Shown here: in pieces, positions 5,396 through 42,824 of the stretch
How the letters are laid out: every line of letters starts with the position of its first letter
Numbering within the stretch: position 1 is the first letter of the stretch
Source of the DNA: a virus
Lineage: Duplodnaviria > Caudoviricetes
IMG/VR virus record: IMGVR_UViG_3300025120_000076
Span: 1-52,422 of that record
Length of the DNA: 52,422 nucleotides
Strand: one strand, 5' to 3'
Notes under the pieces: model-generated
Database searches by the model: none
What the model was told of the DNA's origin: nothing
What the model saw: the letters and a program-made list of their open reading frames with translations, nothing else
Position numbers and translations under genes: made by a program

Positions 5396-5674
5396 TTAAC
5401 ATTTCCATCTGCGTCTAGCAGCTTTACCTCTTTCGCCTGTCCAACCTTTGGATCTAGCACAAAATGATTTTCTTCTTTTAGCAGCTTTGCTACCGGGCTT
5501 AACGTCACCTGTAACAGCTGTTTTTAATTTACTTCCTGGATTTTCTTTTTTATATTCTTTAACACCTTTACTAGTCATACCGGCGCCTTCGTCTGTTGAA
5601 AGAAAGTTTCTACCTTTACCTTTAGTTGTTTTTCTAACTCTAGTGAATGGTGAATTATGTTGTATATATGCCAT
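5396..5674 (-). CDS. small basic protein with MAYxQ..SPF leader and RRKSFCARS...RRRWKC module
   Basis: Leader MAYIQHNSPF and very K/R-rich. The SFCAR module is recurrent in small phage virion-associated proteins. Confidence 0.75.
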   Translation of the reverse strand: MAYIQHNSPFTRVRKTTKGKGRNFLSTDEGAGMTSKGVKEYKKENPGSKLKTAVTGDVKPGSKAAKRRKSFCARSKGWTGERGKAARRRWKC

Positions 5675-5685
5675 GATTAATTATT

Positions 5686-6162
5686 TTATTCTCCACATTT
5701 TTTGCTAGGATCATCTACTCTTCTCCAATCTTCTTTTTCAAACCAATCACGTAATGTAGCTCCTTTTTTTCTAGCTCCTTTTACGTTTGTTTTTGAAGAT
5801 CGTTTATATTTACCACTAGCTCCAGCAGATTTTTTAGAGTTAACTAATTCTTTTTTCTTTTCAGCAGACAAGTTATCTATTTTAGATTTAGGTAAACATG
5901 TTTTAGTTGTGCCTCCGCCTTTTTGCCTAGTTGCAGGAGAACTGCTTTTAGGCACGCAGTTAGGAACTTCTCTTCCACCCTTCATTTTTGTACCTTCTTG
6001 CTTATATGATTTCCAACAGTTGAGTGGTGATTCTTCTTCAATATAATCTTCTATTTTATCAGCTTGCGCAGCATGCATTTTAGAAGCTTTGTTTAATTGA
6101 GTAACAACTTTTTTTAAAATTTTTTTTCTTAAAAAAGGAGAATTAGTTTGTATGTATGCCAT
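5686..6162 (-). CDS. small basic modular protein with MAYxQ..SPF leader
   Basis: Leader MAYIQTNSPF. Internal SPLN and SPA separate modules, including CWKSY..GTK.KGGREVPNCVP and LRDWFEKEDW. Confidence 0.75.
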   Translation of the reverse strand: MAYIQTNSPFLRKKILKKVVTQLNKASKMHAAQADKIEDYIEEESPLNCWKSYKQEGTKMKGGREVPNCVPKSSSPATRQKGGGTTKTCLPKSKIDNLSAEKKKELVNSKKSAGASGKYKRSSKTNVKGARKKGATLRDWFEKEDWRRVDDPSKKCGE

Positions 6163-6347
6163 TATTTTTTACCTTTACCCATTTTACTTGGTCCACCAGC
6201 TTTAGTACATCTTACACCCCAACCAGAAGCGTAGGCGCTTGGCCAAACTTTAAATTTCTTTTTAGCCGCAGCTTTGCAAGGTCCACTTATAGAGCCGTTT
6301 AAAGGAGAACCTAAATTAAAAGGAGAATCGTATTGTTTGTATGCCAT
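6162..6347 (-). CDS. small basic protein with MAYKQ..SPF leader and KFKVWPSAYASG module
   Basis: Begins MAYKQYDSPFNLGSPLN. Its stop overlaps the next start. Confidence 0.75.
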   Translation of the reverse strand: MAYKQYDSPFNLGSPLNGSISGPCKAAAKKKFKVWPSAYASGWGVRCTKAGGPSKMGKGKK

Positions 6348-6514: not shown

Positions 6515-6940
6515 TTATATATTACAATACTCTTCATAAGCGTTAAAACACGGACAGCTTTTCGCTGAAAATTCGTTGTGCCCATGTATCGTTGCTTTTG
6601 GATGTAGTTTTTTTAATACTCTTAATAACTCTAATAAAGTTGCTATTTGATTAGGCGTTCTAGTATCTTTAGCTATCCAGTCTCCATCAGATCCTCTTTC
6701 AGCTTCAACTCCACCAATATAACAAATACCTATACTACCCTTATTGTGATTTTTTACATGAGCACCTGTTTCTGTTATAGGTCTACCATATTCTATCATA
6801 CCATCTAAACCTATTACGTAATGATAACCTATACCTCTCCACCCTCTTTTTTTATGCCATTTGTCTATAGTAGCTGCAGATATCTCTTTACCTTCTTGTG
6901 TGGCAGAACAGTGTATTATTATTTTATCTATTGCCCTCAT
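6515..6940 (-). CDS. N-acetylmuramoyl-L-alanine amidase endolysin (T7 lysozyme / Amidase_2 type)
   Basis: Motifs IIIHCSAT, IGYHYVI, GAHV, SIGICYIGG, IHGH and KSCPCF supply the Zn ligands. Confidence 0.93.
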   Translation of the reverse strand: MRAIDKIIIHCSATQEGKEISAATIDKWHKKRGWRGIGYHYVIGLDGMIEYGRPITETGAHVKNHNKGSIGICYIGGVEAERGSDGDWIAKDTRTPNQIATLLELLRVLKKLHPKATIHGHNEFSAKSCPCFNAYEEYCNI

Positions 6941-27927: not shown

Positions 27928-29154
27928 TTAGTTAAACTTTTTTGTTTTGATTTTTAATTTTGTTGAGTCTAATCCACTAATCGATTTTACTTTTAATCCA
28001 TTTATAAAAACATTTCCGTCTGCAACTTGCCTTGGGCCGTCTTTGGAGGGATTTTTGGAAGTGTTGATAACGTTTTTAACGCCATCAGCTTTTCCTTGTT
28101 CATAAAAATGATGAGCAATTTTATCAGCATTCATTGCAGCATACATAGCTTTATGATACCCAGCTGGATCTACAATTTGTCCTTCATCATTAGAATATCT
28201 ACTAATAAAGTTCTGTACATCTATTTGAGTCTCACCAACTTTAACAGGATCTTTTACTCCATATCTAAATTTTTTATCTCCTACATTGAAATCAAAACCT
28301 TTGAATTCTGAAGAAAATAATTTTTTAGTATTGTCTCTAAAGTCACCGTGTAATCTAGTTGCAGTTTCTTGTTGCAATTTATATTGGTCATAAAAACTTA
28401 ACGCTTCTTGCTGCTCTTGAGTTACACCCGGTCTCAACTTGATCTCGTCGTAATATTTTTTCTTAGAGCTTTCTAAAAATTGTTTTGCTTTTGCAACCTC
28501 TTCTTTATAAGCAAGTTTTTTCTTTCGAATATCTCTTGCCTCGTCCACATCTTCGTCAAAGTTAAAATTATCTTCTAATAAAAAATTAATTTCATCTAAT
28601 TCTAAATGTGGTTTAGTTTTTTTGTAAAATTCATGGAGTAATTGAGCACTGTCTAATTTTTCATAATCTTTATTTAAAGTTACGTAATCTTCTACAGAGC
28701 CACCAGTTTCTTCCATGAATGAAACTAGTTTTTCAATATTTTCTGGTAAAGGTTTTCCAAGAATTTTTTCATCTCTTACAGCTTTTTTAACCTCTTGTTT
28801 TATTTCTTTTACCTCTTCTTCTGTTATTTCTTGGAGTGGGCTTTCTTGATTTTTATCATCTTCGCTGGACTGCTGTATTTGTTCGTCCACTTTAATGCTA
28901 TCTCCGGCTTGTTTGCCCACAGCCACTTCTGTTGTTTCTCCGATTTGAATGGCATCTTCTTCTTGTTTTAATGCTTCTTTAGGAACTTCAACCTTTACAA
29001 CATCTGGAACTACTTCTCCAGTTGCTTCTGGTTTAGTTAAATCAACTTTAGTTATTTTATCTACTTTTTTACCTAATTGTCTAGGTTTAGTTTTTTTAGC
29101 TTTTAAACTAAAATCACCTTCTTGCTTTACAGCTTCTTGTGTTTGTTCTGACAT
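27928..29154 (-). CDS. capsid scaffolding protein
   Basis: Acidic E/K-rich low-complexity N-half and a helical C-half (HFYEQGKAD), located between portal and capsid genes. Confidence 0.65.
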   Translation of the reverse strand: MSEQTQEAVKQEGDFSLKAKKTKPRQLGKKVDKITKVDLTKPEATGEVVPDVVKVEVPKEALKQEEDAIQIGETTEVAVGKQAGDSIKVDEQIQQSSEDDKNQESPLQEITEEEVKEIKQEVKKAVRDEKILGKPLPENIEKLVSFMEETGGSVEDYVTLNKDYEKLDSAQLLHEFYKKTKPHLELDEINFLLEDNFNFDEDVDEARDIRKKKLAYKEEVAKAKQFLESSKKKYYDEIKLRPGVTQEQQEALSFYDQYKLQQETATRLHGDFRDNTKKLFSSEFKGFDFNVGDKKFRYGVKDPVKVGETQIDVQNFISRYSNDEGQIVDPAGYHKAMYAAMNADKIAHHFYEQGKADGVKNVINTSKNPSKDGPRQVADGNVFINGLKVKSISGLDSTKLKIKTKKFN

Positions 29155-29185: not shown

Positions 29186-31561
29186 TTAAATAAGAGATTG
29201 TTGCTGTTCAAAATCAATAGGCAATAAATCATTTTGTCTTTGATCTATCATTTGACTTTGTTGACTACCTTCCATTTTAATTCTTTTATCTTTACGATTT
29301 TCAATTTCTTGTTCTTTAACCGTACGTTTATTAATATCTAATTCAGCTAGTTGTCTATCGTATTCAAACTGCTGAGACATTAAATGTTTTTTACCTTCTA
29401 ATTCAACCTGCATTCTCTGTATTTCAAATTGAGATTTAGCATTTTCTAGATTAACCTTTTGCTCTGTTATTGCTTGTTGTTTTTGAACTTCAGCTAAAGC
29501 AGCTTGTTCATTTTGTTGAGCATTGGCCTGCGCTTGCGCTTGTATGTTAGCCCTAGCATTATTTGCTTCTCTAGCTAATTTTTGTTTACGCTTTTGTTTT
29601 AATAATTGATTTGCTAATTTAAGATTTTTTATTTGCCTAACATCTATAGCATCTTCTAAATCTATACCTCCTGACTGTAAAGCTACTTGTATGTTTTGTT
29701 CTAGCTGAGCTTTAGCTTCATCATCTGGTTCTAATTCTAAAAATATTCCAAAATCATGTAGGTTTAAATAACTAACTTCTTTTAAAGTTTCAACATTATA
29801 CAATGATATACTTTCTATTAAACTATTTGCTGTTAGTGGAAAATCTAAAACATCTGCTAACTTTAAAGATATGTTTTCACATACACGTAAAGCTAAATAT
29901 AAACTAGCGTTATTTATGTGTTTAGTAGCTATGTTTGATTGATTAGCCGCCATTTTAGCTAAACCTACTAAAGCATCTTTATCAGGCAAGCTACCATCTC
30001 TAGCTTCATTTAATCCGGTCACATCTCTTATCATTTGTAAATAATATTGATAAGTTTGTATTAAAGCTCCTAGCTTAGCTCCTGACGCTGATGTTTGTAG
30101 TTCTTGAATAGGGATTCTTCCTCTATTAGGATCACCTTCTTGTGTCAACGATCTACCAACAATACTACCTGTTTGAAAATACATGTTTAATGCTTCGGCT
30201 GGATTATAGTTTGTGCCATTACCAAGATCAACTTCTGCTAATCCGTCCATGTCTAAAAATACTCCATCAGGTACCATGCGTGATAATACTTGTTGCATTT
30301 TTAAATGCGTAATTTGTATCATATCAGCAAAACCAGTACATCTACTGACTATAGATTCTATTCTTCCTTTGTACATTCTTGGCGCTACAATAGTATAGTT
30401 CATTTCAACTTTGGTAGTATCAGCATATGGCCTAGTCATGTTTTCAGCTAACTCCCATTTTAAAATTGTATTAGTTCCTAAAACTTTAGCGCCACTATAT
30501 AAAACTTCTATACTTCTTCCTACCTTATCGTAGGTGTCTGATGGTGGAGGATTAAACTCATCAGTTTTTTGAATTATTTTTTCTAATCCATTTTCTGTTT
30601 TCTTTAACTTAAATACTTGGTTCATGTAAGTTTTATATTCAAAATATAATACTTGAACTGTATTGTTATCATAATTTCCCCAACCAGTTATATATTGTCT
30701 GTTACCTGGCATTTCCTGTATTCTCTGTAATTCTTCATTAGAAATATCTGGAAATTGCTTTTTAAGCTCAGGTATAGTTATTGATTTAACTTCTCCAACA
30801 TAATATATATCTTCAAAGTTAGGATCTTCTGTATAAGAATATATTAAATAAGCTGGATCTACATAATCTAATGTTATGCCATTTGCTTTATTAAAGTTAG
30901 TTTTGGCACAAGCTATTCCACATACTACTAAATCATGATTTAATCTTCTTTTAGTTAATTCCCATTTGTTTTGAGATAACGTTTGAGATATAGCTTCCTC
31001 TTCAGCTATTTCAACAGCTTGCTTATATGATAATTGCATGTGAAGCTCTAAGTCTTCTTTTGTTTTAGGTAACTCATCTTGCGGAACATTAGACTGAGAC
31101 ATATTTATACCTAATTGTTGTTGAGCTTTTTGTATTTGAGCTGAGGCAAACATATCTCTAGCCACATTAGTAGCGTATTGAGTTCTTTCTTTTACTGACT
31201 CAGGATCTTGAGAATACGCTTTAATATCATACTCTTTACTTGAAATACCATTAACTACTATATCAACAAATTTTGATAATATAGGGACAGGTTTCCAGTC
31301 TAAGTTTAAATAGCTTAAGTCACCATTAATAGATAATTCATCTTTATATTTTTGAACAGGTTGTTCTCCTCTAGCGTATAAACGTAGATGATGATAATTA
31401 TTCCAGCTTGTTAAATATCGGTTACCGTTAGTTCTACCTTGATTAAACCATTCTGTCTCAATAGCTGATGCTACTTGTGAACCATATTCCCAGGAAGCTT
31501 TTTCTGCATCCGGTACTACCTGACTCGGAAAAGCGCTATTAGAGTTTGTGTATAAATTCAT
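29186..31561 (-). CDS. portal protein
   Basis: 791 aa directly after the terminase. Motifs PILSKFVDIV and IRDVTGLNEARDG, with a Q-rich C-terminal coiled-coil barrel as in podoviral portals. Confidence 0.8.
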   Translation of the reverse strand: MNLYTNSNSAFPSQVVPDAEKASWEYGSQVASAIETEWFNQGRTNGNRYLTSWNNYHHLRLYARGEQPVQKYKDELSINGDLSYLNLDWKPVPILSKFVDIVVNGISSKEYDIKAYSQDPESVKERTQYATNVARDMFASAQIQKAQQQLGINMSQSNVPQDELPKTKEDLELHMQLSYKQAVEIAEEEAISQTLSQNKWELTKRRLNHDLVVCGIACAKTNFNKANGITLDYVDPAYLIYSYTEDPNFEDIYYVGEVKSITIPELKKQFPDISNEELQRIQEMPGNRQYITGWGNYDNNTVQVLYFEYKTYMNQVFKLKKTENGLEKIIQKTDEFNPPPSDTYDKVGRSIEVLYSGAKVLGTNTILKWELAENMTRPYADTTKVEMNYTIVAPRMYKGRIESIVSRCTGFADMIQITHLKMQQVLSRMVPDGVFLDMDGLAEVDLGNGTNYNPAEALNMYFQTGSIVGRSLTQEGDPNRGRIPIQELQTSASGAKLGALIQTYQYYLQMIRDVTGLNEARDGSLPDKDALVGLAKMAANQSNIATKHINNASLYLALRVCENISLKLADVLDFPLTANSLIESISLYNVETLKEVSYLNLHDFGIFLELEPDDEAKAQLEQNIQVALQSGGIDLEDAIDVRQIKNLKLANQLLKQKRKQKLAREANNARANIQAQAQANAQQNEQAALAEVQKQQAITEQKVNLENAKSQFEIQRMQVELEGKKHLMSQQFEYDRQLAELDINKRTVKEQEIENRKDKRIKMEGSQQSQMIDQRQNDLLPIDFEQQQSLI

Positions 31562-33769
31562 TTATTCAATTATTTTTGACAATGTACCTTTATTGTTATA
31601 TTTTTTTATTCCTATATCAAAAACTTGTCTTGTAGTTTTAGCTATGGGTCTATATTTGTTTTTATTGCAAGCCATTATAGCTAAGCCAGAACTAATAGAA
31701 GCATCATGACTTGTTCTGTTATTTATGTTAAATTTAGCCCAATCTTCTAATGTTCTTTGAAGATACATTTGACCATACTCTCCATTACTTTTTATTCCAA
31801 TAAAATCTTCAATATAAGATTCTATAGCGGCAGCGTGAGCTTGTTTAATATCTTCACTTGAATTAGGTATTCCACCTATTTCTCTTTCAGTTACAGATAG
31901 TTTTATTTTATCCGGCCGGTTCATTGCAAAACCTCTATAGCCTCTTCTTTTAAAATGATATAATAATCTTGGCTTATTATTTTCAGCTAATATAGGCATG
32001 CTATAAAAAATACAAGCCATTAAAACATCTTCAAAAAATATTTCAGCAGTTTGTGGTCTAGCTATATATTCTAAGAAAAAATGATTTGCTGGCGCATTTT
32101 CCATGCTAAACTTTGTTAGCCCGTGTAGAGAACCTTTTGATCCTCTTTTATCTACTGTTCCTGATATATCATAACTATCACACCCGAAAGCACCTATATG
32201 TTCATTAGCAGGATATTTTAATCCTCTTTTTATTACAATATTATTTTGTAGGTTAAGAGGTGGTGTCCAGGTGATAAAAAATCTTCCTTTGTTATGAGGA
32301 ACAAATATAACTTTAGTATCTTTTATTCCGTTTTCCCAATGAAAATTTCCTTGTGTAACTAAATTACTATTTCTTAAATCTCCGTTCCAGTCTATTTGCT
32401 CGTATATTTTTGTTAAATTAAAAAGAGAGGCTTTTGCCTCATCTCTAAAAGCATGTTCTTCAGTTCTTGGAAATTGTCTATAAAATTCATTTAATGCATC
32501 TTGATCTGTTTTTAAACCATCAACTTCATTTTGCCAATAGTCTATAACACCTAATTTTATCTGCGTGCCATGAGCATCTGTTGTTTTTTTATTTGGAGTG
32601 TCGAATACAGGTACTCCATGAGAATCAATGTATCCCTCGTAGTTCCATTCCATAGGTATGAACAAACTATATAATCCCGAGCGAGTCTGTCCGTTGGCGT
32701 TTCTATTTGTGACATCTGAATCATAATATAATTTTTTAAAATTATCACCTCCTTTATCTAATGAATTTGAGGTTGATCCCATCATACACTTTCCAATTAT
32801 TCTACTACCTAATCTAAGTGTAGTTTTTGTAACCCTCCAGTTATTTTGAATATTATTAGGTCTTTCCCATTTACCACTTTCATCGTGTACTAAAAGCTTA
32901 AGTTTTTCTCCATCATAAGAGTTGTCGCCTGTATTTTTCCAATCGATTGTTGTGTCAAGTCCTTCAAGCTCAGCTGCTGTTTCATTAGAGTCGAGCTTTC
33001 TACGGGTAAATTTAGATGCTGGTACTCTGTAAGCAAGCTCAGTCTTGGGGCGATCCATACCGTCTTGTATTGGTTTGAAAAAAAACGGGTAGTTAACTGA
33101 TATTGGTACGACCTTATCGGTAAACATTGTTTTTGCATCTGGTCCAGATTTTGATAATATACCATATCTTGAGTCTGAATTAATGGTTGCGAGATTAACA
33201 ACCTCTCCTGAGGCCATAAATGAAAATCCTGATCTACGGTTTTTAAGGTAGCACATTCCATAGCTTCTGTAGTCTGCTTTGCAAGCTTCCCAGAAAATAT
33301 AGAATAATCTATTTGCTTCTCTAAAATCTGGTTTCCCAACATCAATCTTGGACCACTGCAAGTACATATAGTGAGTACCAGTAATGTAAGTAGCCACGTT
33401 TTTATTATAGAACCAAAAACCTTGTTCTCTTCGAAGAAATTCTTTATCAATGTAATCATACCAGTGTTCTTTAAAGTCAACCGGATATTTCTCCCAATCA
33501 AATCTCGTTTTTATTTTTTTTAATTCTTCAGGTATAATAGATCTATGCCATGCATTTTTTTCAAACTTAACTACATTATCTTTTTTTGGCAGAGCTATTT
33601 TTAGATTTTGTATTTCGTATATTTCACCTATCTCACCTGTTCTACTAATTATAATTATATCATATTTATCATTATAACCGTACTCCCACTTTTTATTTCT
33701 ATTGTTTCTTTTTAATATATTAGAATCAATGTAATTTTCTAAAACTTTATATAAGTTTTGCTTATACAT
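31562..33769 (-). CDS. terminase large subunit
   Basis: Walker A-like LKNRRSGFS, Walker B LLVHDESGK, coupling motif GSTSN, nuclease AFGCDSYD and C-terminal HDASISSG. Confidence 0.88.
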   Translation of the reverse strand: MYKQNLYKVLENYIDSNILKRNNRNKKWEYGYNDKYDIIIISRTGEIGEIYEIQNLKIALPKKDNVVKFEKNAWHRSIIPEELKKIKTRFDWEKYPVDFKEHWYDYIDKEFLRREQGFWFYNKNVATYITGTHYMYLQWSKIDVGKPDFREANRLFYIFWEACKADYRSYGMCYLKNRRSGFSFMASGEVVNLATINSDSRYGILSKSGPDAKTMFTDKVVPISVNYPFFFKPIQDGMDRPKTELAYRVPASKFTRRKLDSNETAAELEGLDTTIDWKNTGDNSYDGEKLKLLVHDESGKWERPNNIQNNWRVTKTTLRLGSRIIGKCMMGSTSNSLDKGGDNFKKLYYDSDVTNRNANGQTRSGLYSLFIPMEWNYEGYIDSHGVPVFDTPNKKTTDAHGTQIKLGVIDYWQNEVDGLKTDQDALNEFYRQFPRTEEHAFRDEAKASLFNLTKIYEQIDWNGDLRNSNLVTQGNFHWENGIKDTKVIFVPHNKGRFFITWTPPLNLQNNIVIKRGLKYPANEHIGAFGCDSYDISGTVDKRGSKGSLHGLTKFSMENAPANHFFLEYIARPQTAEIFFEDVLMACIFYSMPILAENNKPRLLYHFKRRGYRGFAMNRPDKIKLSVTEREIGGIPNSSEDIKQAHAAAIESYIEDFIGIKSNGEYGQMYLQRTLEDWAKFNINNRTSHDASISSGLAIMACNKNKYRPIAKTTRQVFDIGIKKYNNKGTLSKIIE

Positions 33770-34041
33770 TATTTAGATCTTGTTTCTGCAAAACCTTTAA
33801 AACTTTTTTCTTTTGTTTCTTTTGGTTTTTCATTTATAATATTTTCTTCCTCTTGTATTTTTTGTAAAATTTCAAAGGCATCAAATATAGCTAATTTTTT
33901 TGTTGCAGCTGCGTTTTTTAATCTATCCGCTGATATATCTTCTGCTGTATCTACAATAGGTTCTTTAGCCACCTTTATTAATTCCTCAACTGCTATTTGC
34001 CCAGCTTGGATTATATTCTTCTTGGTTTTCTTTATTTCCAT
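33769..34041 (-). CDS. small helical protein, candidate terminase small subunit
   Basis: 90 aa, translationally coupled to the terminase large gene. The call rests on position only. Confidence 0.4.
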   Translation of the reverse strand: MEIKKTKKNIIQAGQIAVEELIKVAKEPIVDTAEDISADRLKNAAATKKLAIFDAFEILQKIQEEENIINEKPKETKEKSFKGFAETRSK

Positions 34042-34591
34042 ATTTAATTACAATATCATTAGATTTCATACAGTATAATCTTTCATCGTTTATAATAAAA
34101 TCATACTCTCCATAAGGTGTGTATCCTACAACGTCTCCCTCACTCACACCCGCAGCTTCTAAGAAGCTATTACCTATTTTTAATACACCAATAAGCTTTT
34201 GTTCTTTATTTATATTAAAATCATTTTTTGATTTTAAAGGTTTTACAAAACATCTATTGTTTATTGACTTAAAATCTTCTTTATTTTTATATAAATATAT
34301 TTGATCTAAAGAACAGAAATATAAATCTTCTTTAAACCAAGATCTACTTTTTTTCTTATTACCTCTTATATCATAAAAAGTTCTAAATACATTATGATGT
34401 ATAACTATAATATCACCAACTTTAATTGGGGTGTTGTATGCTATAGGTGTTTTAACTACAACAGCTAGATTATTAACAAATTTAAAATTTTCTATTTTAG
34501 TATTTAAAATTAATTTTATCCCACCTATTGTTATATCATTAGAATACTCTTTACCTAAAGGTTTTACAACAAAATCATATATTGACCTCAT
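33986..34591 (-). CDS. GroES-like (tandem Cpn10-fold) protein
   Basis: Two halves, each with a VKP...(K/E)xGD[IV][IV] pattern. The second ends LYCMKSNDIV, which resembles the GroES C-terminus. Confidence 0.5.
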   Translation of the reverse strand: MRSIYDFVVKPLGKEYSNDITIGGIKLILNTKIENFKFVNNLAVVVKTPIAYNTPIKVGDIIVIHHNVFRTFYDIRGNKKKSRSWFKEDLYFCSLDQIYLYKNKEDFKSINNRCFVKPLKSKNDFNINKEQKLIGVLKIGNSFLEAAGVSEGDVVGYTPYGEYDFIINDERLYCMKSNDIVIKYGNKENQEEYNPSWANSS

Positions 34592-35087: not shown

Positions 35088-35492
35088 CTACTTATTACTA
35101 TTATTACTTATTTTTTTACCTTTTTCCCATGATCTTCCTACAAAGTAAGCTCCATAAACGGTTACTAATAATGTTTGAAATATTGGTATGTATTCTTCTG
35201 CTATTTTAAACTCACCTATGTTACCATCAAAAAACGCACAAACAGTAAATATAACAGTTAAGTATATTAACACCATAGGGCGTATGTTCTTTGACAAAAC
35301 AGAATCAGACTTCATGTCTGACTCCCATCTTGATGTAACTTGCTCTTGTGCTTCGCTGTCGGCTTTTTCTAATATTTGTGTTATTAATCTTTGAGCTTCT
35401 AGCTTTTCTTCTTTAGTAGTAGTTAAACTGTCTATGACTTGACCAACTTCTTTAATAACATTGCCAGTGAGCCATTCCCAAAGTTTTTTCAT
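35088..35492 (-). CDS. holin-like membrane protein (GTA-type 3TM holin family)
   Basis: Motif RWESDMKSDS.LSKNIRP followed by two TM segments and YFVGRSWEK. Confidence 0.7.
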   Translation of the reverse strand: MKKLWEWLTGNVIKEVGQVIDSLTTTKEEKLEAQRLITQILEKADSEAQEQVTSRWESDMKSDSVLSKNIRPMVLIYLTVIFTVCAFFDGNIGEFKIAEEYIPIFQTLLVTVYGAYFVGRSWEKGKKISNNSNK

Positions 35493-35495
35493 AAT

Positions 35496-36092
35496 TTAAT
35501 TGTTTACTGCACAACCACAAGAATTACCGCCACGTTTACTACCACCGCTTTTAGTTCTAGGTCCCATAGATAAACTAGGCTTTCCAATTTTTATAGATTT
35601 TCTACCTTTACCTGGCACCTTAAATCCTGGAGGCAATTGCTTTTCTTTTTTCGCTGGTGGTGGTGGTGGTGGTGGATTTGGAACAAATGTTAAATTTGAT
35701 CTTTTTTTCTCACCATAATTTTTAGGAATTGCTGGTGTTTTCTTTCCTTTAATTTTTGTTTCATACTTTTTAGGATTGTCTTTAATCCATTGTTTCTGCT
35801 TTGCTCTTTCTTCAGGATCTTTACTAAAAGGGACTTTCTTAGGAGGTGTTGTTTTTCCAGGTTTTCCAGGAATCTCAAAGTCAGTTTGATAATTTGTTTT
35901 TGTGTATGTACCTTTTACACCATCTTTTGAACCTTTGTAGGTTTCACTACCAGTTTGTCTTTCTACATCACAAGGAGGATTACCTGGAGTTCCACAAGGA
36001 CCAGCGTTAATAGGACTCATAACTCTAGAAATGCCACCAAAAGGAGTTCTGTTTTGTTTTTGGGATTTAGATCCCATACTCATTCTAAACAT
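35496..36092 (-). CDS. basic, Pro/Lys-rich protein carrying the GISRVMSPIN linker
   Basis: Low complexity with a poly-Pro run. Shares G[IV]SRVMSP with ORF 39019..39792. Confidence 0.7.
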   Translation of the reverse strand: MFRMSMGSKSQKQNRTPFGGISRVMSPINAGPCGTPGNPPCDVERQTGSETYKGSKDGVKGTYTKTNYQTDFEIPGKPGKTTPPKKVPFSKDPEERAKQKQWIKDNPKKYETKIKGKKTPAIPKNYGEKKRSNLTFVPNPPPPPPPAKKEKQLPPGFKVPGKGRKSIKIGKPSLSMGPRTKSGGSKRGGNSCGCAVNN

Positions 36093-36097
36093 AATAT

Positions 36098-36811
36098 TTA
36101 TTTTTTATTTTTATTAGCAGCGTATTCTTTTCTTCTTTTAACAAGGTCTGCAACAGCTTGAGATTTTTTAGTTTGTTGCTCAGCTTTTTTACTTGCCCTC
36201 GACTTCTTGTATGTTTCTCTTCTCTTATCTAAATCAGCTTTGTTTTGAGCTTTTTTGGCTGCATTGGCTTTTCTTTTATTATCTGTTTTTATAGATCCAT
36301 AAGCTGTTTTTGTTTGCGTAGTTCCAGAAGATACTTTACCATCAACTATGTTAACTGAGCCAGTCTTTTTTAATTGTCTACGAACATCTTTTTCTTTTAC
36401 GTTTGGATATTGTTTACTAGTAAAAGCATCAATTGAACCTGCACCACCTCCTCGCGTACCTGTTTTTACTTCAAGTAAATTTCTTCCACCTACTTTAACT
36501 TTACCGCCGCTGCCGCCTCTCATGTACCCTTGAGTATTTAAAGCATCACCATCAGCATCTCTAGTGTTAGCGGCTTTAGTTAAATCTGCTGCTAATTTAT
36601 TTCTAGATTTTCTATTTTGTCTTTTAGTCCCTGGTTTAACAGCTACTTGTCTAGTATATCTATCCTTTTCTCCATCATGCTCATGATCAAAATCCATGTC
36701 ATGATTTAATGGTGAAGAGCCTAATCTAAACAAAGAAGATTGACCCGCGACTTGCTTTGTCTTGTTGTAACCCGAAGTTCGTGACGGGCCAAAATTTTGT
36801 TTATATGCCAT
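36098..36811 (-). CDS. basic protein with MAYKQNFGP leader
   Basis: First 11 residues are identical to ORF 39019..39792. Contains SSPLN and is K/R-rich. Confidence 0.75.
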   Translation of the reverse strand: MAYKQNFGPSRTSGYNKTKQVAGQSSLFRLGSSPLNHDMDFDHEHDGEKDRYTRQVAVKPGTKRQNRKSRNKLAADLTKAANTRDADGDALNTQGYMRGGSGGKVKVGGRNLLEVKTGTRGGGAGSIDAFTSKQYPNVKEKDVRRQLKKTGSVNIVDGKVSSGTTQTKTAYGSIKTDNKRKANAAKKAQNKADLDKRRETYKKSRASKKAEQQTKKSQAVADLVKRRKEYAANKNKK

Positions 36812-36814
36812 GTT

Positions 36815-37411
36815 TTATTTTTTTTTATCCATACCCGGATCAGATTTGTAAGCTCTTTTTCCTTTACTTTTTTCCATACCTTTAGACTCATCTCTACGAT
36901 CTTTCATAGATTGTTTCTTGCTAGATTCTTTACCATCTTTAGCTAAACTTTCGTCAAGTTTATCATTGTATCCTTGTCTTGACATTCCTTTTTCCGCCAT
37001 ACTAGCATGTGCTGCTTTTCTTTGGTCGTCACTTTTATATCTTGACATTCCGTCTTTGCCTTGAGATTTTTTTATTGCAGCATCTTTTTTAGCCATGTAT
37101 TCTTCAGTAGAATGCTCAGACGTATGTCTTGACATTCCGCCGTCTATACCGTCTAATGCAGCTTGTCCTTTAGTTTTTCTAGACATTCCTTCTGAACCTT
37201 GTATGCCTTTTAATTTTTCAGCAGGTACTCCATATGAATAACCATCCATACCTTTTTGTCCGTTCATAGCACCTGACATTCCTTTCAGGTATTGAACAGA
37301 ATTATCTAATGGAGACATCGCTGTGTCTGCTCCACTCATGATTCTTGAAATCATGTCTTTTCCGTGTTTTGAACCTTTTCTGTTTGGTCCAAATTTTTGA
37401 TTATATGCCAT
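36815..37411 (-). CDS. basic modular protein with MAYNQKFGP leader and four GMSR repeats
   Basis: MSPLD followed by four GMSR motifs separating short modules. Confidence 0.75.
   Translation of the reverse strand: MAYNQKFGPNRKGSKHGKDMISRIMSGADTAMSPLDNSVQYLKGMSGAMNGQKGMDGYSYGVPAEKLKGIQGSEGMSRKTKGQAALDGIDGGMSRHTSEHSTEEYMAKKDAAIKKSQGKDGMSRYKSDDQRKAAHASMAEKGMSRQGYNDKLDESLAKDGKESSKKQSMKDRRDESKGMEKSKGKRAYKSDPGMDKKK
36977..37189 (-). repeat. four 12-bp repeats encoding GMSR
   Basis: TCTTGACATTCC at 36977, 37040 and 37127, and TCTAGACATTCC at 37178 (plus-strand text). Confidence 0.85.
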
Positions 37412-37416
37412 TTTTT

Positions 37417-37746
37417 TTAATATTTTTCGTAGTTATCTGTTTTACTATATGCTTCTTTTTCCCATGGTAAATTAGGATTACCCTCATTCATTTTTGAACG
37501 AGAATATGTTTTTCCTTTCCAATAGACGTTTTTATTATCATAATCTAGATCACCTCTTTTTATTTGATCTATATGAACTTCTTCATGATCAATTATACTT
37601 TGAGTTTGCTCTGAATCTTTAGTTATATCCTCGGAAATTAATATAGTACCGTTTTTATTGCCTTTACCTAAAATACCTTCTGGTAATTCTCTTTCATACA
37701 CAGGAGTGTTAAATAAAGGAAATGGTGAACTCATTTTAAATGCCAT
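37417..37746 (-). CDS. small zincin-like metallopeptidase with MAFKMSSPF leader
   Basis: IIDHEEVHIDQ (HExxH) preceded by G.I.I strands, with downstream LPWEKEAY providing a probable third ligand Glu. Confidence 0.7.
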   Translation of the reverse strand: MAFKMSSPFPLFNTPVYERELPEGILGKGNKNGTILISEDITKDSEQTQSIIDHEEVHIDQIKRGDLDYDNKNVYWKGKTYSRSKMNEGNPNLPWEKEAYSKTDNYEKY

Positions 37747-37747
37747 A

Positions 37748-37903
37748 TTAGTTTTTATAAGGAAACATTTTATTCAATGTTGTTTGTCGTTTTTTACAAC
37801 CACAGGGGACGTTAAGTCCGCTAGATATTCTATCTACAACGGACTTAATTCCTGTTCTTTGTGTAAACTTAGCAACATCGTCGCCTAATCCCCTAGACTT
37901 CAT
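37748..37903 (-). CDS. small protein (51 aa) with GLGD...CGC..R...LN..FP pattern
   Basis: Read by hand: MKSRGLGDDVAKFTQRTGIKSVVDRISSGLNVPCGCKKRQTTLNKMFPYKN. It exactly fills the gap between neighbours. Confidence 0.7.
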   Translation of the reverse strand: MKSRGLGDDVAKFTQRTGIKSVVDRISSGLNVPCGCKKRQTTLNKMFPYKN

Positions 37904-37910
37904 CTAAATA

Positions 37911-38390
37911 TTATAGAGAAGCTAAAGATGAAAATGTAGCTTGATTCCAATACATTTGGTCATCAGCTAATAATCCAGCACCATCTTTACCTAATTGACA
38001 AGTAGAAGATACTCCACCTGGATTAGCAGTAAGTGCTCTGTTGATTATTTGAGAAGGCATGTTACCTGCTACAGTTACCGTGGCAGGATTAACAATAGCA
38101 ACTGCTCCTGTTCCTTGTGTATCTGCTGGATCTGAAATAGTGCTAGTACCTACAAGTAAAGTAAGTATTCTTCCACCTACTGTTCCAGCTGGTACTGTAG
38201 CGCCATCAGCGTGTCCTGCTTCTAACCCTACGTATTCACTTAGTGTAACAACTACACTGTAAGCACCACCACCAGATACTGCATCTGATATGCTTTCGAT
38301 TTTGTCAACATCTAGTAATACTGATCTTGATCCTGTACCACTTCCTAAAGTAGCATTGTTTGCGATGTTAAATTTAATAAATTTCGCCAT
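37911..38390 (-). CDS. hypothetical protein, possibly an abundant virion / decoration protein
   Basis: 159 aa, G/A/T/V-rich, with capsid-like codon usage. Confidence 0.65.
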   Translation of the reverse strand: MAKFIKFNIANNATLGSGTGSRSVLLDVDKIESISDAVSGGGAYSVVVTLSEYVGLEAGHADGATVPAGTVGGRILTLLVGTSTISDPADTQGTGAVAIVNPATVTVAGNMPSQIINRALTANPGGVSSTCQLGKDGAGLLADDQMYWNQATFSSLASL

Positions 38391-38468
38391 AATTTTTGTT
38401 TTTGTTTTTGTTAATGTTTATGTGATTGTTTTTATGTGAGTTTTATTACAGACCTCTACTGTTATTTT

Positions 38469-39005
38469 TTATCCTTCTTCTACTGGGTTTGTAAGATCTC
38501 CACTTATAGGTAGTGTTCCTCTAGAAGCTCCAGCAATAGAGTTTGTAGCACCTTGTGCACCTCCAGATATAAATTCGTTAGAAACTTGCTCTGCAGCACC
38601 TGCTTCTTGAGCAACAGCGGCATCTTCGCCTTCTGTTGTTGCACCTGCGTCATCACCTGCTAATTGACTTTCTATAGAATCTAGTTTAGTTATTATTTCT
38701 TGGTGTCTTCCTTTTCTTCCTCTCCCTCTTCTTTTTCCACCAAGTATAGCCGCGGCAGCTCCAGCAAGAAAACCAAAATTAGCTGGTGAATCATTGTGCT
38801 CAGCACCTGTTGAATTTTTACCATCATAATTATAACTACCATGAGCATCGTCAAATAAAGCTTCAGCGTGGCCTTTGTGACCTTCTTTCATTTGTCGCTT
38901 ACCTCTTTTTACATCTTCTTCTTCCCATGAGTTAACCATGTGACGTCTAGAGTGTTTAGCGTTTCCGCTGTATTGACCATAATGTCCTTTTTGTTTATAT
39001 GCCAT
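38469..39005 (-). CDS. modular protein with MAYKQ leader
   Basis: MAYKQKG..., a His-rich module, DSPAN, then a hydrophobic plus basic segment and an acidic tail. Confidence 0.7.
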   Translation of the reverse strand: MAYKQKGHYGQYSGNAKHSRRHMVNSWEEEDVKRGKRQMKEGHKGHAEALFDDAHGSYNYDGKNSTGAEHNDSPANFGFLAGAAAAILGGKRRGRGRKGRHQEIITKLDSIESQLAGDDAGATTEGEDAAVAQEAGAAEQVSNEFISGGAQGATNSIAGASRGTLPISGDLTNPVEEG

Positions 39006-39018
39006 AACTTTGTATTTA

Positions 39019-39792
39019 TTAACCTAATCTAAAAGTATCAGAACTTGAATTATAATAAATAGATTGACCTTTAGGTATATCTCCTTTATTTATTTTCTTT
39101 TCAATTTTTTTTGATTGTCTTTTAGATTGTCTTTTAGTTTTTGACTCTTGTCTTTTAGTGACTTTATCTAGTTTATTTTTGTTTCTTTTTGTAACTCTTT
39201 TAGCTTTTTCAGATTGTCTTTTAGTCGTTCTATCTATTCTACCTTGTATTCTAGCTTCTTTAGCTTTATTACCTTTACCTTGTTTAGCTGCTTTAAGTTT
39301 TCTATCTAGTCTGTTTAATCTACCTTTACCCTCATTACTATCACGCTTTACATTATCATTACCACCACTTACAGCACCACTACCACTTATTGTTGCTCCT
39401 TCAAATTCACCAAAGTCTACATCATATCTTTCTGGAGACGAATAAGAATTTTCACCAGTTTGAACATCGTTATTATTTTGCAAAACAAAACTTGAAAAAT
39501 CAGGTTCAGCATTTAAAGGAGATTCTGTTCTACTTAAACCCATTAGAGTTTTAGCTAAATGAGCTTGTTTTTCTAACTTACCACCTTTATTTTCTTTTAT
39601 AACTTTATTAGCATACGCGGCCGTACTCATGCCCGCTTTCTCTGCTTTAGCTTTAAATTGTCCTTTGCTATTTTTGGTAGCATCAGCTATCCAATCTTTA
39701 GCATCTAGTGGACTCATTACTCTTGAAACGCCGCACATAGACATAGCTTTGCCAGATTTTCTAGATGGTCCAAAATTTTGTTTATATGCCAT
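39019..39792 (-). CDS. basic modular protein with MAYKQNFGP leader
   Basis: GVSRVMSPLD and GLSRTESPLN bracket a WIADA...AGMS...LAKTL module. The C-half is K/R-rich. Confidence 0.75.
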   Translation of the reverse strand: MAYKQNFGPSRKSGKAMSMCGVSRVMSPLDAKDWIADATKNSKGQFKAKAEKAGMSTAAYANKVIKENKGGKLEKQAHLAKTLMGLSRTESPLNAEPDFSSFVLQNNNDVQTGENSYSSPERYDVDFGEFEGATISGSGAVSGGNDNVKRDSNEGKGRLNRLDRKLKAAKQGKGNKAKEARIQGRIDRTTKRQSEKAKRVTKRNKNKLDKVTKRQESKTKRQSKRQSKKIEKKINKGDIPKGQSIYYNSSSDTFRLG

Positions 39793-40559: not shown

Positions 40560-41009
40560 TTAATTTTTATATTTATCTTTGTTTGCGTTATATATAGATT
40601 TTGATAATACTTTATCTGTATATGTTTTTCTTTTAATTATAGAATTTCTTCTTTGACTTGAAGGTATTTCCTCTTTGCCTAGCATTATTCTATATATTCT
40701 TTTTATAAGTTGCTTTCCTTTAAAAGAAACTTTGTATATATTGTAAGTTTGAGTAGTTCTATTTCTTTTTCTCCATACAACAACCCAATCATTTTTTATT
40801 AACCTGCTCCATCTTCTATTGTCCCAACTATAAGAATAAGATCCTTCTTTAAAATCTTTTAATGTAAAAAGATCTATACAATCTAAATATATTAAAAGTT
40901 CTAAATCAGCTTCATTTATGCCGTTGTTTTTGGAAGCCCATTTGCGTATTATACGATAATGTTTTAACAGATTAATTTTTTTTAAATCTTCTGCATCTAG
41001 CTTTTTCAT
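40560..41009 (-). CDS. putative winged-helix (MarR-like) DNA-binding protein
   Basis: Basic. INEADLELLIYL helix, RLIKNDWV recognition-helix end and YKVSFKGKQL wing motif. Confidence 0.55.
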   Translation of the reverse strand: MKKLDAEDLKKINLLKHYRIIRKWASKNNGINEADLELLIYLDCIDLFTLKDFKEGSYSYSWDNRRWSRLIKNDWVVVWRKRNRTTQTYNIYKVSFKGKQLIKRIYRIMLGKEEIPSSQRRNSIIKRKTYTDKVLSKSIYNANKDKYKN

Positions 41010-41269
41010 AAAACAACGACCACATCTTGTAGTTTAATAACGTGGTAAGCTTTATTTTCTATTTCTATTTTATGACCTGAGTGCTTATCGTAAAATATTT
41101 CATCACCTACAGCAACTCCAGCCACATCATCACCCATGCTTATAATATTAGCCCTTAAATACCTAATGTCATCTTTGTGTGATTCTGCTAATAGTAAACC
41201 TCCTTTTGTTGAGGTTGTACCATCTTTTATTTTTTCTATAATTAAATTTCTACCTAGTGCTTTCATCAA
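41006..41269 (-). CDS. groES: co-chaperonin GroES (Cpn10)
   Basis: KALGRNLII, mobile loop TKGGLLL, VAVGDEIFY and IKLQDVV. Adjacent to groEL. Confidence 0.85.
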   Translation of the reverse strand: MMKALGRNLIIEKIKDGTTSTKGGLLLAESHKDDIRYLRANIISMGDDVAGVAVGDEIFYDKHSGHKIEIENKAYHVIKLQDVVVVL

Positions 41270-42824
41270 CTCTTACATTATTAATTACACAATCAGTAGA
41301 TATTATAGTAGTCGCTACGGAAGCCGCATTAATTAAAGCACTTTTAGTAACTAGTAGTGGATCTATAATACCATGTTTAACCATATTTACCATATTTCCT
41401 GTAACTACATCTAAACCTTCGCCTTTATTATTTTTTAAATGATCATTTTGCTTGTCTGTTACAACAACACCTGCATTATTTAATATTTTAAAAAAAGGAG
41501 CTTTTATAGCTCTTAATAAAGCTTTTTCTCCATTAGACTTAGATTTTAAACTATTTGAAGCGTTGAACAAGGCTATACCTCCGCCAGATACTATTCCTTC
41601 TTTTATTGCGGCTTTTGTAGCGCATATAGCGTCTTCTACTCTATCTGTTTTTTCTTTTAATTCAATATCAGAATTAGCACCTACTTTTACTATAGCTACT
41701 TTACCAGATAAACGAGCTAAACGTTTTTCTAGGTTTATAACAACGTGAGGTTTATTTTTCTTTGTTAAATCTTTTTTAATTTGATTTATAATATCTTTTA
41801 CTTCCTCACTTGTTTCATTAACTGTTATTAATGTTTTGTCACTATCAGAAGAAGCTTTAATACATGAACCTAAGTAATCAATATCTATAATACTTAAGTC
41901 ATCACCTAAATCTTCGTTTATAATAGTTGATCCCGTCAATAAAGCCAAGTCATCTAAAATAGTTTTTCTATTTAAACCATAAGCTGGAGGGTCTATAACA
42001 TTTATCTTTATATTCCCTTTCATTTTATTCATTACTAAAGCAGATAAAACAGCGTTTTCTACTTCACCTATAATCAATAAAGCTTTGTTGTTTTTTATAA
42101 CATGCTCTAGTACTGATTGTATCTGCCTAATTGAATCTACTTTTGATTCCATTATTAGCATTAGTGGATTTTCTAAATCAGCAGTGCTTTTGTCTTTATC
42201 AGTAGTAAAATTTATATGTGCAAAACCTTTATTATATTCTACACCTTCTACAATTTTAACCTCAGTGTCTCCAGTTTCAGAACCTTCCATTGTTACAACA
42301 CCTGTTTTACCAACTTCTCTAAAAGCATCAGCAATTAACTTACCTAACTCTTTATCATTGTTAGTAGATATTGTGGCTATGTTGTCAATCATTTCACCAG
42401 AAACTGGTAAACTGTTTTTTTCTAAATATTTTACAACTTTACCAACGCCGTCTAAAATACCTTTTTTAGTTATTCTTATATTAGCGTCTTTTTCTTTTGA
42501 TGAATAAACTTGATCCAATATAGCGTGCGCTAATATTGTTGCTGTTGTTGTTCCATCACCTGCTTCCCTAACTGTTTTACGAGATGCTTCTTTTAATAAA
42601 GTAGCACCCATATTTTCTATAGGATCTTTTAATATAATAGAGTTTGCAACTGTTACACCATCTTTGGTTATAACTGGGTGACCACTTGAGTCTTCCATTA
42701 TAACACATTTACCGCTGGCTCCAAGTGTGGAGCCAACAGCATTAGTGAGTTGTTCTATTCCTTTAAATACTTTAAACTTAGCTTCGTCACCAAAGCTTAA
42801 GTTCTTGACTATTGAGTCTGACAT
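41250..42824 (-). CDS. groEL: chaperonin GroEL (Cpn60)
   Basis: Motifs TLG..G, ITKDGVTVA, AGDGTTTAT, DRVEDAICATKAA, GIVSGGG and GIIDP..VT. Confidence 0.96.
   Translation of the reverse strand: MSDSIVKNLSFGDEAKFKVFKGIEQLTNAVGSTLGASGKCVIMEDSSGHPVITKDGVTVANSIILKDPIENMGATLLKEASRKTVREAGDGTTTATILAHAILDQVYSSKEKDANIRITKKGILDGVGKVVKYLEKNSLPVSGEMIDNIATISTNNDKELGKLIADAFREVGKTGVVTMEGSETGDTEVKIVEGVEYNKGFAHINFTTDKDKSTADLENPLMLIMESKVDSIRQIQSVLEHVIKNNKALLIIGEVENAVLSALVMNKMKGNIKINVIDPPAYGLNRKTILDDLALLTGSTIINEDLGDDLSIIDIDYLGSCIKASSDSDKTLITVNETSEEVKDIINQIKKDLTKKNKPHVVINLEKRLARLSGKVAIVKVGANSDIELKEKTDRVEDAICATKAAIKEGIVSGGGIALFNASNSLKSKSNGEKALLRAIKAPFFKILNNAGVVVTDKQNDHLKNNKGEGLDVVTGNMVNMVKHGIIDPLLVTKSALINAASVATTIISTDCVINNVRVDESTR

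Follow-up and report, generated by a model that had tools for sequence, protein, structure and literature searches.

A short N-terminal leader on basic proteins of an uncultured marine podovirus and its association with a predicted minimal zincin

Why should a series of dissimilar, mostly basic phage proteins begin with nearly the same few residues, and why should a small HExxH protein encoded among them begin in a similar way? This question is raised by positions 35,496 to 39,792 of the IMG/VR record IMGVR_UViG_3300025120_000076, and by a second cluster of three genes at 5396-6347 of the same record. The window analyzed here is the whole record, 52,422 bases of an uncultured marine podovirus with an estimated completeness of 81%, and its minus strand carries nearly all genes. 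The shared N-terminus, of the general form MAYxQ and called the leader in what follows, stands on proteins that are Lys-rich and mostly disordered and on small Cys modules, a set whose membership changes, and, judging from the sequences, is portable, phage-specific and lineage-wide. We consider it very probable that the leader is a functional signal, and on balance we favor the view that it is coupled to the HExxH protein, a predicted zincin. That the two form a leader-directed system of capsid loading and trimming is a tentative proposal, to which we give somewhat less than an even chance. Leader-directed loading has been worked out for T4 only, and how cargo is chosen by phages without a head protease is poorly understood.

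All the N-termini and internal motifs quoted in the original prediction were found in the window where it had placed them. Scanning for ATG-GCN-T[AT][CT] gave 10 sites, 8 of which open real minus-strand open reading frames (ORFs) of 61-257 amino acids (aa), named here by their lowest coordinate (5396, 5686, 6162, 36098, 36815, 37417, 38469 and 39019); the other two belong to a 3-aa ORF and to a position within an 839-aa ORF. Seven of the eight start with MAYxQ, and 37417, the gene of the HExxH protein, starts with MAFKM. Together with 35496, which has a variant leader, they make up a set of nine proteins (1,488 aa) in which SP[LFIA][ND] occurs nine times, against no occurrence in the other 51 ORFs (15,396 aa); the mean over shuffled sequences was 0.09, and none of 2,000 shuffles reached nine. 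Likewise, G[MVLI]SR occurs seven times in the leader set and once in the other ORFs. Since these expressions were set after the sequences had been viewed, a fairer control than shuffling is the comparison with the other ORFs. The tagged proteins had been described as basic and as otherwise unrelated, and both descriptions hold for most of them, the leader being all that most pairs have in common. The net charge is +11 to +33 in seven of the nine and -4 in 38469 and the HExxH protein, and the strongly basic members have a low hydrophobic fraction (0.17-0.20). Weak full-length similarity joins 36098, 36815 and 39019 (23-26% identity, E 1e-4 to 1e-8) and is driven by composition. As for 38469, counted as a tagged member in the original prediction, it has MAYKQ in common with the others and nothing beyond, and its orthologues begin with MEKGH or MGYQKGH.

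What is conserved appears to be the peptide. The first 23 nucleotides of 36098 and 39019 are identical, as had been noted, and the following codons, for G-P-S-R, all differ synonymously between the two genes, with A-rich DNA upstream that shows no conservation. Because G-P-S-R is kept with different codons and the upstream DNA differs, the constraint acts on the peptide and not on the DNA.

The leader extends well beyond the window. By means of the HExxH protein, 80 IMG/VR loci were collected, in which a recurring module was found (GroEL, GroES, a 148-aa basic protein, a 72-aa and a 165-aa protein, a 51-aa Cys protein, the HExxH protein, a holin, a GroES-like protein and the large terminase, TerL). 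Variable small genes sit between these conserved ones, so that gene content changes from locus to locus; their starts include MAYKQNNNPLSRKSSPLN and MPYTQKWGISRNAFQSPLN, and also MAYIQHSSPFLKK and MGYKQNNPLPRMKS. A strict form of the leader grammar was present in 63 of 915 unique ORF N-termini (81 family loci), and the leader is both frequent and specific: the nine control loci, taken from four cultured relatives, two pelagiphages, two cyanophages and Melnitz, have no match among 566 ORFs, and there is none among 546 antisense ORFs of the family loci. Of 58 occurrences of the core motif, 56 stand immediately after Met1, one comes after an internal Met and one is truly internal. Part A of the leader reads M-[AGP]-[YF]-x-[QLM]-x(1-4), then [NS]-P-[FL] or [FW]-G-x-S-R, and part B reads G-[ILMV]-S-R-x(0-3)-S-P-[LIF]-[ND]; the bipartite leader is 12-33 residues long. 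In a logo of 67 leaders the conserved positions are M, A/G/P, Y, Q, N/F, P, F/L, R and K; the x positions vary, and M, Y, Q, P and F/L stay constant. Part B, or a bare SP[FL]x, recurs inside proteins, typically just before a domain module (..EESPLN-CWKSYK.. in 5686; ..ESPFEK-RKTTKGKGRNF.. in many DUF6321 proteins).

As a DNA pattern, MAYxQxNNP[LF] matched 119 stretches in viral contigs, many of them a leader followed by DUF6321 and others a leader on unrelated bodies. In 185,579 prokaryote genomes the same pattern matched 18 stretches, mostly internal or chance matches, the sole phage-like leader gene being on a 63-kb contig (L312) of a Sphingobacteriales metagenome-assembled genome. This gene begins MAYIQKNNPFKLVRRGRKKHARS.., close to viral L119; perhaps the contig is that of a phage which was binned together with its host, and it would then offer a lead to the host. 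The MGYHQ-type matches in cultured relatives were rejected as chance, being ORFs of 16-18 aa or an unrelated folded protein. More than 600 IMG/VR stretches encode a TerL of the window type at 73-99% identity. The portal protein of the window is 26-49% identical to the portals of 87 phage-collection records, which include the elemo phages, Maribacter phage Panino, phi38:1 and the metagenomic record ctfjg026, and 85 of the 87 are named for Flavobacterium, Cellulophaga, Tenacibaculum or Maribacter. The leader carriers form a large family of uncultured marine podoviruses that probably infect Bacteroidota. A literature search returned no paper on the leader (as MAYKQ) or on DUF6321, and for phage internal proteins with a metallopeptidase or propeptide it returned T4 and SPN3US-type work only.

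That the leader is an add-on is best seen in the third gene of the second cluster (5396-5674), whose product passes the gathering cut-off of DUF6321 (PF19846; 45 bits vs 28.5, E 1.7e-11) over residues 28-81, after the leader. Its DUF6321 relatives come from 73 cultured-phage records, mostly of pelagiphages and cyanophages, and the best matches align from residue 13 onward only. Indeed, the DUF6321 proteins of HTVC028P and HTVC010P start with MAIRKTTKGK, which is the point of continuation after MAYIQHNSPF in the window; as these pelagiphage homologues have no leader, the leader is an add-on. In many leader-DUF6321 proteins (L088-L167), a conserved PVTSCGRRR element comes straight after the leader. 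A 60-aa Hc1 histone-H1-like protein (PF07432, E 9.4e-20; L207:5387-5569, in the related genome G008) is encoded next to a leader-DUF6321 gene.

All three modules of the second cluster were also found, in the same order, within one 517-aa protein, gp029 of the Synechococcus phage S-SCSM1. The matches fall at gp029 residues 213-241 for the 6162 module (E 1e-07), 233-286 for the 5686 module (E 1e-05) and 408-490 for 5396 (E 2e-10); the stretch of S-SCSM1 compared with window positions 5396-6347 is L085:1280-2833, and PHROG 727 (450 positions) also holds the three modules in that order. The genes beside the DUF6321-bearing protein in cyanomyoviruses (L086:457-1149, MKTYQELMEV; L085:2833-3153, MKTFKQFMSE) presumably resemble the T4 capsid targeting sequence (CTS). 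Modules made as separate polypeptides and bound for the same place would each need their own address, which fits a leader on each. The only link of the tagged genes to virions is indirect and runs through this protein: the S-SCSM1 record labels gp029 a virion protein, and the gene adjoins the terminase gene. This status comes from the record label and from the methods text of the S-SCSM1 paper, the part available to us, according to which virion proteins were identified by mass spectrometry of CsCl-purified particles (PMC9602691). In that work 45 proteins were detected.

In the HExxH protein, the motif that the original prediction had pointed to is fully conserved: H54, E55, H58, Q61, D66, E88, E96 and E98 are invariant among 107 aligned homologues, and H54, E55 and H58 are also invariant in 50 fusion forms. 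Its 562 relatives are 59-191 aa long. The AlphaFold2 model (predicted local distance difference test, pLDDT, 70) consists of three strands, the HExxH helix, two hairpins and a helix with E96-x-E98-A, and in a second model, of a fusion form, the core has a pLDDT of 81-89. The invariant residues E88, E96, E98 and D66 are candidates for the third metal ligand, with E96-x-x-A99 lying within the predicted helix 94-102. Fold matches are nearly all to HExxH enzymes but weak. The best in Foldseek was abylysin (4jiu, E 0.06, probability 1.00), and VIA gave PprI/IrrE (8sln_A, Z 7.1, root-mean-square deviation 3.7, 86 aligned; a further match at Z 5.7), Spartan (Z 5.6), abylysin (5.5), CapP (5.3) and Wss1 (5.2); selecase was also among the matches. 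Neighbors in the Atlas are labelled M78 or SprT (scores 0.84-0.86) and serve as leads only. The HExxH protein is thus predicted to be a minimal zincin akin to IrrE/ImmA, SprT or the minigluzincins.

What connects this putative enzyme with the leader is, above all, a group of fusions. Among 73 longer relatives of the zincin, 69 consist of an N-terminal zincin and a tail of 106-443 aa which, like the products of the leader genes, is poor in hydrophobic residues and has a K+R fraction of 0.12-0.27. In 49 of the 69, a leader-like linker, M-x(0-5)-F-[KQ]-L-x-G-..-N-N-K-P-F-..-G-L-I, is found no more than 50 residues past the zincin, always with a Met just before it; these 49 include many close relatives and form about eight subgroups by eye. 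In an alignment of 50 sequences, F119, L121 and L139 of the linker are as invariant as the catalytic residues, and the rest of the tail is unconserved. Moreover, the zincin itself usually starts with MAFKLKPPF, in which F3 and P8 are at least 90% conserved and which is unstructured in both AlphaFold2 models, and some zincins carry a leader of canonical type (P0130, MAYKQKNNPL; P0125, MYKQKRNPF; P0176, MSYKQKG). At the level of sequence, the fusions with an internal leader-like element and the zincins starting with MAYKQKNNPL are new findings. Co-occurrence of leader and peptidase, expected in the original prediction, was examined in 50 of 80 leader-pattern loci, on contigs of about 34 kb or more, and holds in part: the zincin is present on 28 of the 50, including all 9 records that are at least 90% complete. 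The four cultured relatives, searched as whole records, have neither a zincin (profile, E <= 0.1) nor leader genes. Taken together, fusion, shared element and co-occurrence tie the HExxH protein to an N-terminal element that is real and selected as a peptide.

When the tagged proteins of the window were compared by BLAST with the tails of all 73 fusion forms, no match reached E <= 1e-3. A complex prediction for the zincin with residues 1-45 of 39019 scored 0.02 (mark 0.32), which is uninformative on binding either way, and in the AlphaFold2 model of the fusion P0145 (206 aa, 50-row alignment) the linker has a pLDDT of <50 to about 60 and the tail <45, so that docking is unreadable. The original prediction had recognized no canonical prohead protease in the head module, and no such family was matched by Pfam or PHROGs among 42 ORFs of the window, which is 81% complete, or by Pfam among 65 scanned ORFs (60 aa or longer) of the complete relative G008, in a scan without four border-crossing ORFs and one further ORF.

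In the explanation that we prefer, the leader would serve the tagged proteins both as a shared address and as a signal for processing, and it would be coupled to the 109-aa zincin, which the phage encodes and which bears a leader variant of its own. Within the late operon, just upstream of the TerL, portal and capsid genes, the free N-terminal leader would bring the tagged proteins and the zincin into the assembling procapsid; the zincin would then remove the leader and cut the part-B sites, and the basic products would remain with the DNA as internal or ejected proteins. The binding partner, the packaging, the cleavage and the fate of the products are the parts that we infer. A stronger form of this proposal, which we hold to be less likely than not, is a new cargo system free of the known prohead-protease class. 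In it, a portable bipartite leader and a co-addressed 109-aa zincin would bring a fast-evolving basic arsenal into the capsids of podoviruses without a prohead protease and would process it, the system would extend over hundreds of marine phage contigs, and the zincin-cargo fusions would be self-processing polyproteins.

Several observations weigh against this explanation. The strict cargo grammar fits only 7 of 56 zincins; most zincins read MAFKLKPPF, and some have extra residues in front. The zincin is missing from 22 of the 50 leader contigs tested, these 22 being 59-86% complete, and the leader genomes checked all belong to one broad GroEL/TerL family, so that the co-occurrence may stand for one or two independent events. 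In the myovirus Melnitz, a distant zincin homologue (32% identity) has no leader genes nearby, and gp029 of S-SCSM1 has neither the leader nor an SPLN motif. The assignment of the enzyme is affected too: Foldseek gave no match at E <= 0.001, all Z scores were below 8, and the zincin matched no Pfam model at E <= 0.01, no NCBIfam model and no PADLOC model. Given the weak fold matches and the blank searches of curated models, no membership in a named family is assigned to it. A sequence comparison with PDB chains gave an unrelated protein as the best match (E 0.14), and Pfam had no match for the long or variant zincins L223, L224 and L226. The remaining points of this kind concern lysis: in 41 of 67 loci the holin gene follows the zincin gene with 0-3 genes between them (none in 20, one in 18), the second cluster adjoins the amidase endolysin and a 51-aa membrane protein, and the pelagiphage DUF6321 gene lies just after endolysin and membrane-protein genes.

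These last observations are what one would expect if the locus were part of a lysis cassette, in which cationic proteins, perhaps cut by the zincin, attack the envelope at lysis. Cationic outer-membrane disruptors act in place of spanins, and the Pfam and PHROGs scans of the window recognized no spanin. The proximity of zincin and holin, with tagged genes filling the slot between them, keeps a lysis role alive; the holin itself lies within the late structural operon, so that the adjacency says little. Moreover, about 1,400 aa spread over up to nine proteins is far beyond the needs of lysis, the proteins have few hydrophobic residues and are not amphipathic-looking, and the related modules of S-SCSM1 carry a virion label. 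We therefore regard a lysis role as quite improbable, although it is, with a different binding partner, one of the two main rivals of the cargo proposal. According to the latter rival, the leader would be a short linear motif for one partner outside the capsid, a host protein or a phage factor, for instance the phage chaperonin, and the tagged proteins would be cytoplasmic effectors of anti-defence or host takeover. They are indeed disordered, fast-evolving and shuffle modules as arms-race effectors do, and the locus has GroEL, GroES and a second GroES-like gene on its flanks. So strictly N-terminal a position, however, would be unusual in a motif that simply binds; the genes belong to the late structural operon, immediately upstream of TerL, and not to an early region, PADLOC gave no matches, and the virion label of S-SCSM1 speaks here too. 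Overall, this rival is improbable in our judgment.

The two other alternatives leave either the enzyme or the signal out. The leader may be a targeting or assembly signal and the zincin not its protease, the leader being retained or removed by the host and the zincin cleaving a regulator or defence protein in the manner of IrrE, ImmA or CapP. The best fold matches, PprI/IrrE and CapP, are single-substrate regulatory proteases, the leader of P22 gp7 is removed by a host protease (PMC4992974, in the part available), and the Melnitz homologue stands apart from leader genes. We nevertheless judge this rather unlikely in view of the 69 fusions to leader-type basic tails, with their conserved leader-like linker, of the zincins that start with MAYKQKNNPL and of the presence of the zincin in all nine of the most complete leader genomes; no helix-turn-helix (HTH) or partner-regulator gene was found beside it with Pfam or PHROGs. 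Finally, there may be no signal at all, the proteins being paralogues from local duplication whose N-terminus is kept because translation initiation constrains it, the phage being AT-rich and its host making no use of Shine-Dalgarno sequences. The identical 23 nucleotides, the A-rich upstream regions and the weak full-length similarity of three of the proteins would fit, but the same residues are encoded by different codons, the x positions vary around the constant ones, the leader stands on unrelated domains (DUF6321, Cys modules, the zincin), part B also turns up within proteins, leader-like elements are conserved in the interior of fusions, where no initiation constraint applies, and most other ORFs of the same genomes are without a leader. 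This alternative is already largely refuted, and we give it almost no weight.

Behind the leader, the protein sequences change rapidly. Across the four closest loci, identity is 87-91% for the HExxH protein but only 37-69% for the tagged proteins; orthologues of the latter are rich in indels and swapped modules, and mainly their first 25-30 residues are kept. In this respect the locus resembles the hypervariable loci that encode the T4 internal proteins. Part of an L032 protein with another leader subtype shares 87% identity with residues 143-197 of 36815, and such a match under different leaders indicates module shuffling. Pfam, NCBIfam and PADLOC returned no family for any tagged protein except DUF6321, or for the 51-aa Cys protein, and tblastn found nothing similar to 39019 among cultured phages, probably an effect of the low-complexity filter. 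As these proteins change so fast, they probably play a part in the struggle of phage and host, and the leader flags genes that are worth testing. If our explanation is true, the internal and ejected proteins of abundant uncultured ocean phages would be readable from sequence alone, the leader would be a candidate packaging tag for engineering, and the zincin would be a natural enzyme of about 100 residues with a defined linear target.

The genes of the main cluster all lie on the minus strand. The gene at 39019..39792 encodes a leader-tagged basic protein of 257 aa (net +30), with MAYKQNFGPSRK as part A, GVSRVMSPLD as part B, a second part-B copy (GLSRTESPLN, residues 85-94) and a Lys/Arg-rich C-terminal tail; residues 33-87 match phrog_20603, which has no assigned function. 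It is followed by the doubtful member at 38469..39005, an acidic protein of 178 aa (net -4) starting with MAYKQKGHYG. At 37748..37903, directly upstream of the zincin gene, lies the gene of a conserved 51-aa protein with a PCGC motif (phrog_32048, no assigned function), whose BLAST relatives in the family loci comprise 47 subjects, including the ORF of the window itself. Of 67 loci, 17 have it upstream of the zincin, whose usual neighbor it is, and 3 have it downstream; it may be a partner or regulator of the zincin, and its pattern is GLGD..AKFT..TGIK....PCGC..RQ. The 109-aa HExxH protein, the predicted minimal zincin, is encoded at 37417..37746, and its N-terminal element MAFK[LMI]xPPF is conserved but unstructured. 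Five nucleotides past its stop codon begins the gene at 36815..37411, encoding a leader-tagged protein of 198 aa (net +15) with MAYNQKFGPNRK, then ISRIMS...SPLD and then four GMSR repeats. Next are a leader-tagged basic protein of 237 aa (36098..36811, net +33; MAYKQNFGPSR...SSPLN) and a basic Pro-rich protein of 198 aa (35496..36092, net +29) with the variant leader MFRMSMGSKSQKQNRTPFGGISRVMSPIN, which begins MFRMS...TPFGGISRVMSPIN; the first 30 residues of the latter are almost unchanged in its L006 orthologue.

The second cluster, also on the minus strand, consists of a 61-aa gene product (6162..6347) with MAYKQYDSPFNLGSPLN and then a Cys module (WPSAYASG), one of 158 aa (5686..6162) starting with MAYIQTNSPF... 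and with SPLN immediately before a CW..Y...PNCV module, and one of 92 aa (5396..5674), which is the MAYIQHNSPF protein with DUF6321 described above.

The recognized genes of the window also include those of a ribonucleotide reductase and of virion structural proteins. The amidase endolysin lies at 6515-6940, followed by an ORF of 2,469 aa (6940-14349, minus strand) without a family match; giant ORFs also occur in relatives (2,343 and 3,789 aa in G008; a 1,691-aa 'structural protein' at the same position in phi38:1). A virion protein of 491 aa (17359-18834, minus strand) matches the C-terminal domain of the crAss-phage muzzle (PF25729, E 4.4e-08), which hints at a crAss-like tail architecture for this podovirus family. 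The major capsid protein is encoded at 26424-27911 and a candidate scaffold at 27928-29154. Portal and TerL are encoded at 29186-31561 and 31562-33769, and the 201-aa GroES-like protein (33986-34591, minus strand) immediately upstream of the terminase. On its downstream side, the variable slot is bordered by the holin (35088-35492, minus strand), of the three-transmembrane gene-transfer-agent type (Pfam PF11351, E 1.3e-05; phrog_3427, E 5.3e-28). GroES and GroEL are at 41006-41269 and 41250-42824, on the minus strand; GroEL/GroES together with a second GroES-like gene near the terminase show the same layout in phi38:1, the elemo phages and Panino. In phi38:1, two small basic proteins encoded at the syntenic place upstream of TerL, gp069 and gp080, owe their annotation as structural proteins to similarity with another Cellulophaga phage. 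A comparison of 39019 with gp069 showed no significant similarity (E 1.6), and since the two are not detectably homologous we claim an analogy only; neither gp069 nor gp080 is mentioned in the available parts of a proteomics paper on methylation in phi38:1 (PMC13288928).

How does this locus compare with known systems? Its function would be closest to that of the T4 CTS of IPI-III and Alt, which the prohead protease gp21 removes: a short common N-terminal peptide stands on diverse, fast-changing and often basic proteins. Moreover, gp21 of T4 is part of the prohead core, and as in T4 the enzyme itself seems to carry the address, as we infer for the zincin here. The T4 CTS is described as helical, unlike the leader, which contains Pro and Gly, is bipartite and is therefore probably extended. 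The cut consensus of the T4 prohead protease is L/I-x-E, whereas no L/I-x-E is conserved in the logo of the 67 leaders of the window family. In contrast to T4 and its myovirus relatives, the phage studied here is a podovirus (the record of a relative labels its portal 'P22 like'), and no gp21-type protease was matched in it, the candidate enzyme being a 109-aa HExxH zincin. In the available part of one report, T4 internal proteins are described as having a conserved short leader and hypervariable gene content (PMC3012670).

As for the enzyme, the models suggest a likeness to IrrE/PprI, ImmA, CapP, abylysin, jannalysin and selecase, in which the HExxH helix follows a small beta-sheet and a second helix bears an invariant Glu, and its size fits minigluzincins of roughly 105-110 aa. 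Unlike IrrE, ImmA and CapP, it has no HTH, GAF or partner-regulator domain. S-SCSM1 differs in another way: gp029 unites in one polypeptide three modules that are three separate leader-tagged genes in the window, and this T4-like myovirus has T4-type machinery of its own and a gp029 without MAYxQ leader or SP[LF]N linkers.

P22 offers the remaining comparison. Oligopeptidase A, reportedly identified by Conlin et al. in 1992 as the enzyme that processes the P22 ejection protein gp7, is an HExxH metallopeptidase. The N-terminal 20 residues of gp7 are removed by a host protease, according to the part of the report that was available (PMC4992974). On that basis, P22 is likewise a podovirus without prohead protease, with an N-terminal leader on an internal or ejection protein that is removed before assembly. 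The zincin candidate, of 109 aa and without a Pfam peptidase match, is unlike the M3-family oligopeptidase of the P22 type. In P22 one protein is processed by a host enzyme, whereas here up to nine leader proteins per genome stand beside a tiny, phage-encoded candidate enzyme, which is sometimes fused to its presumed substrate.

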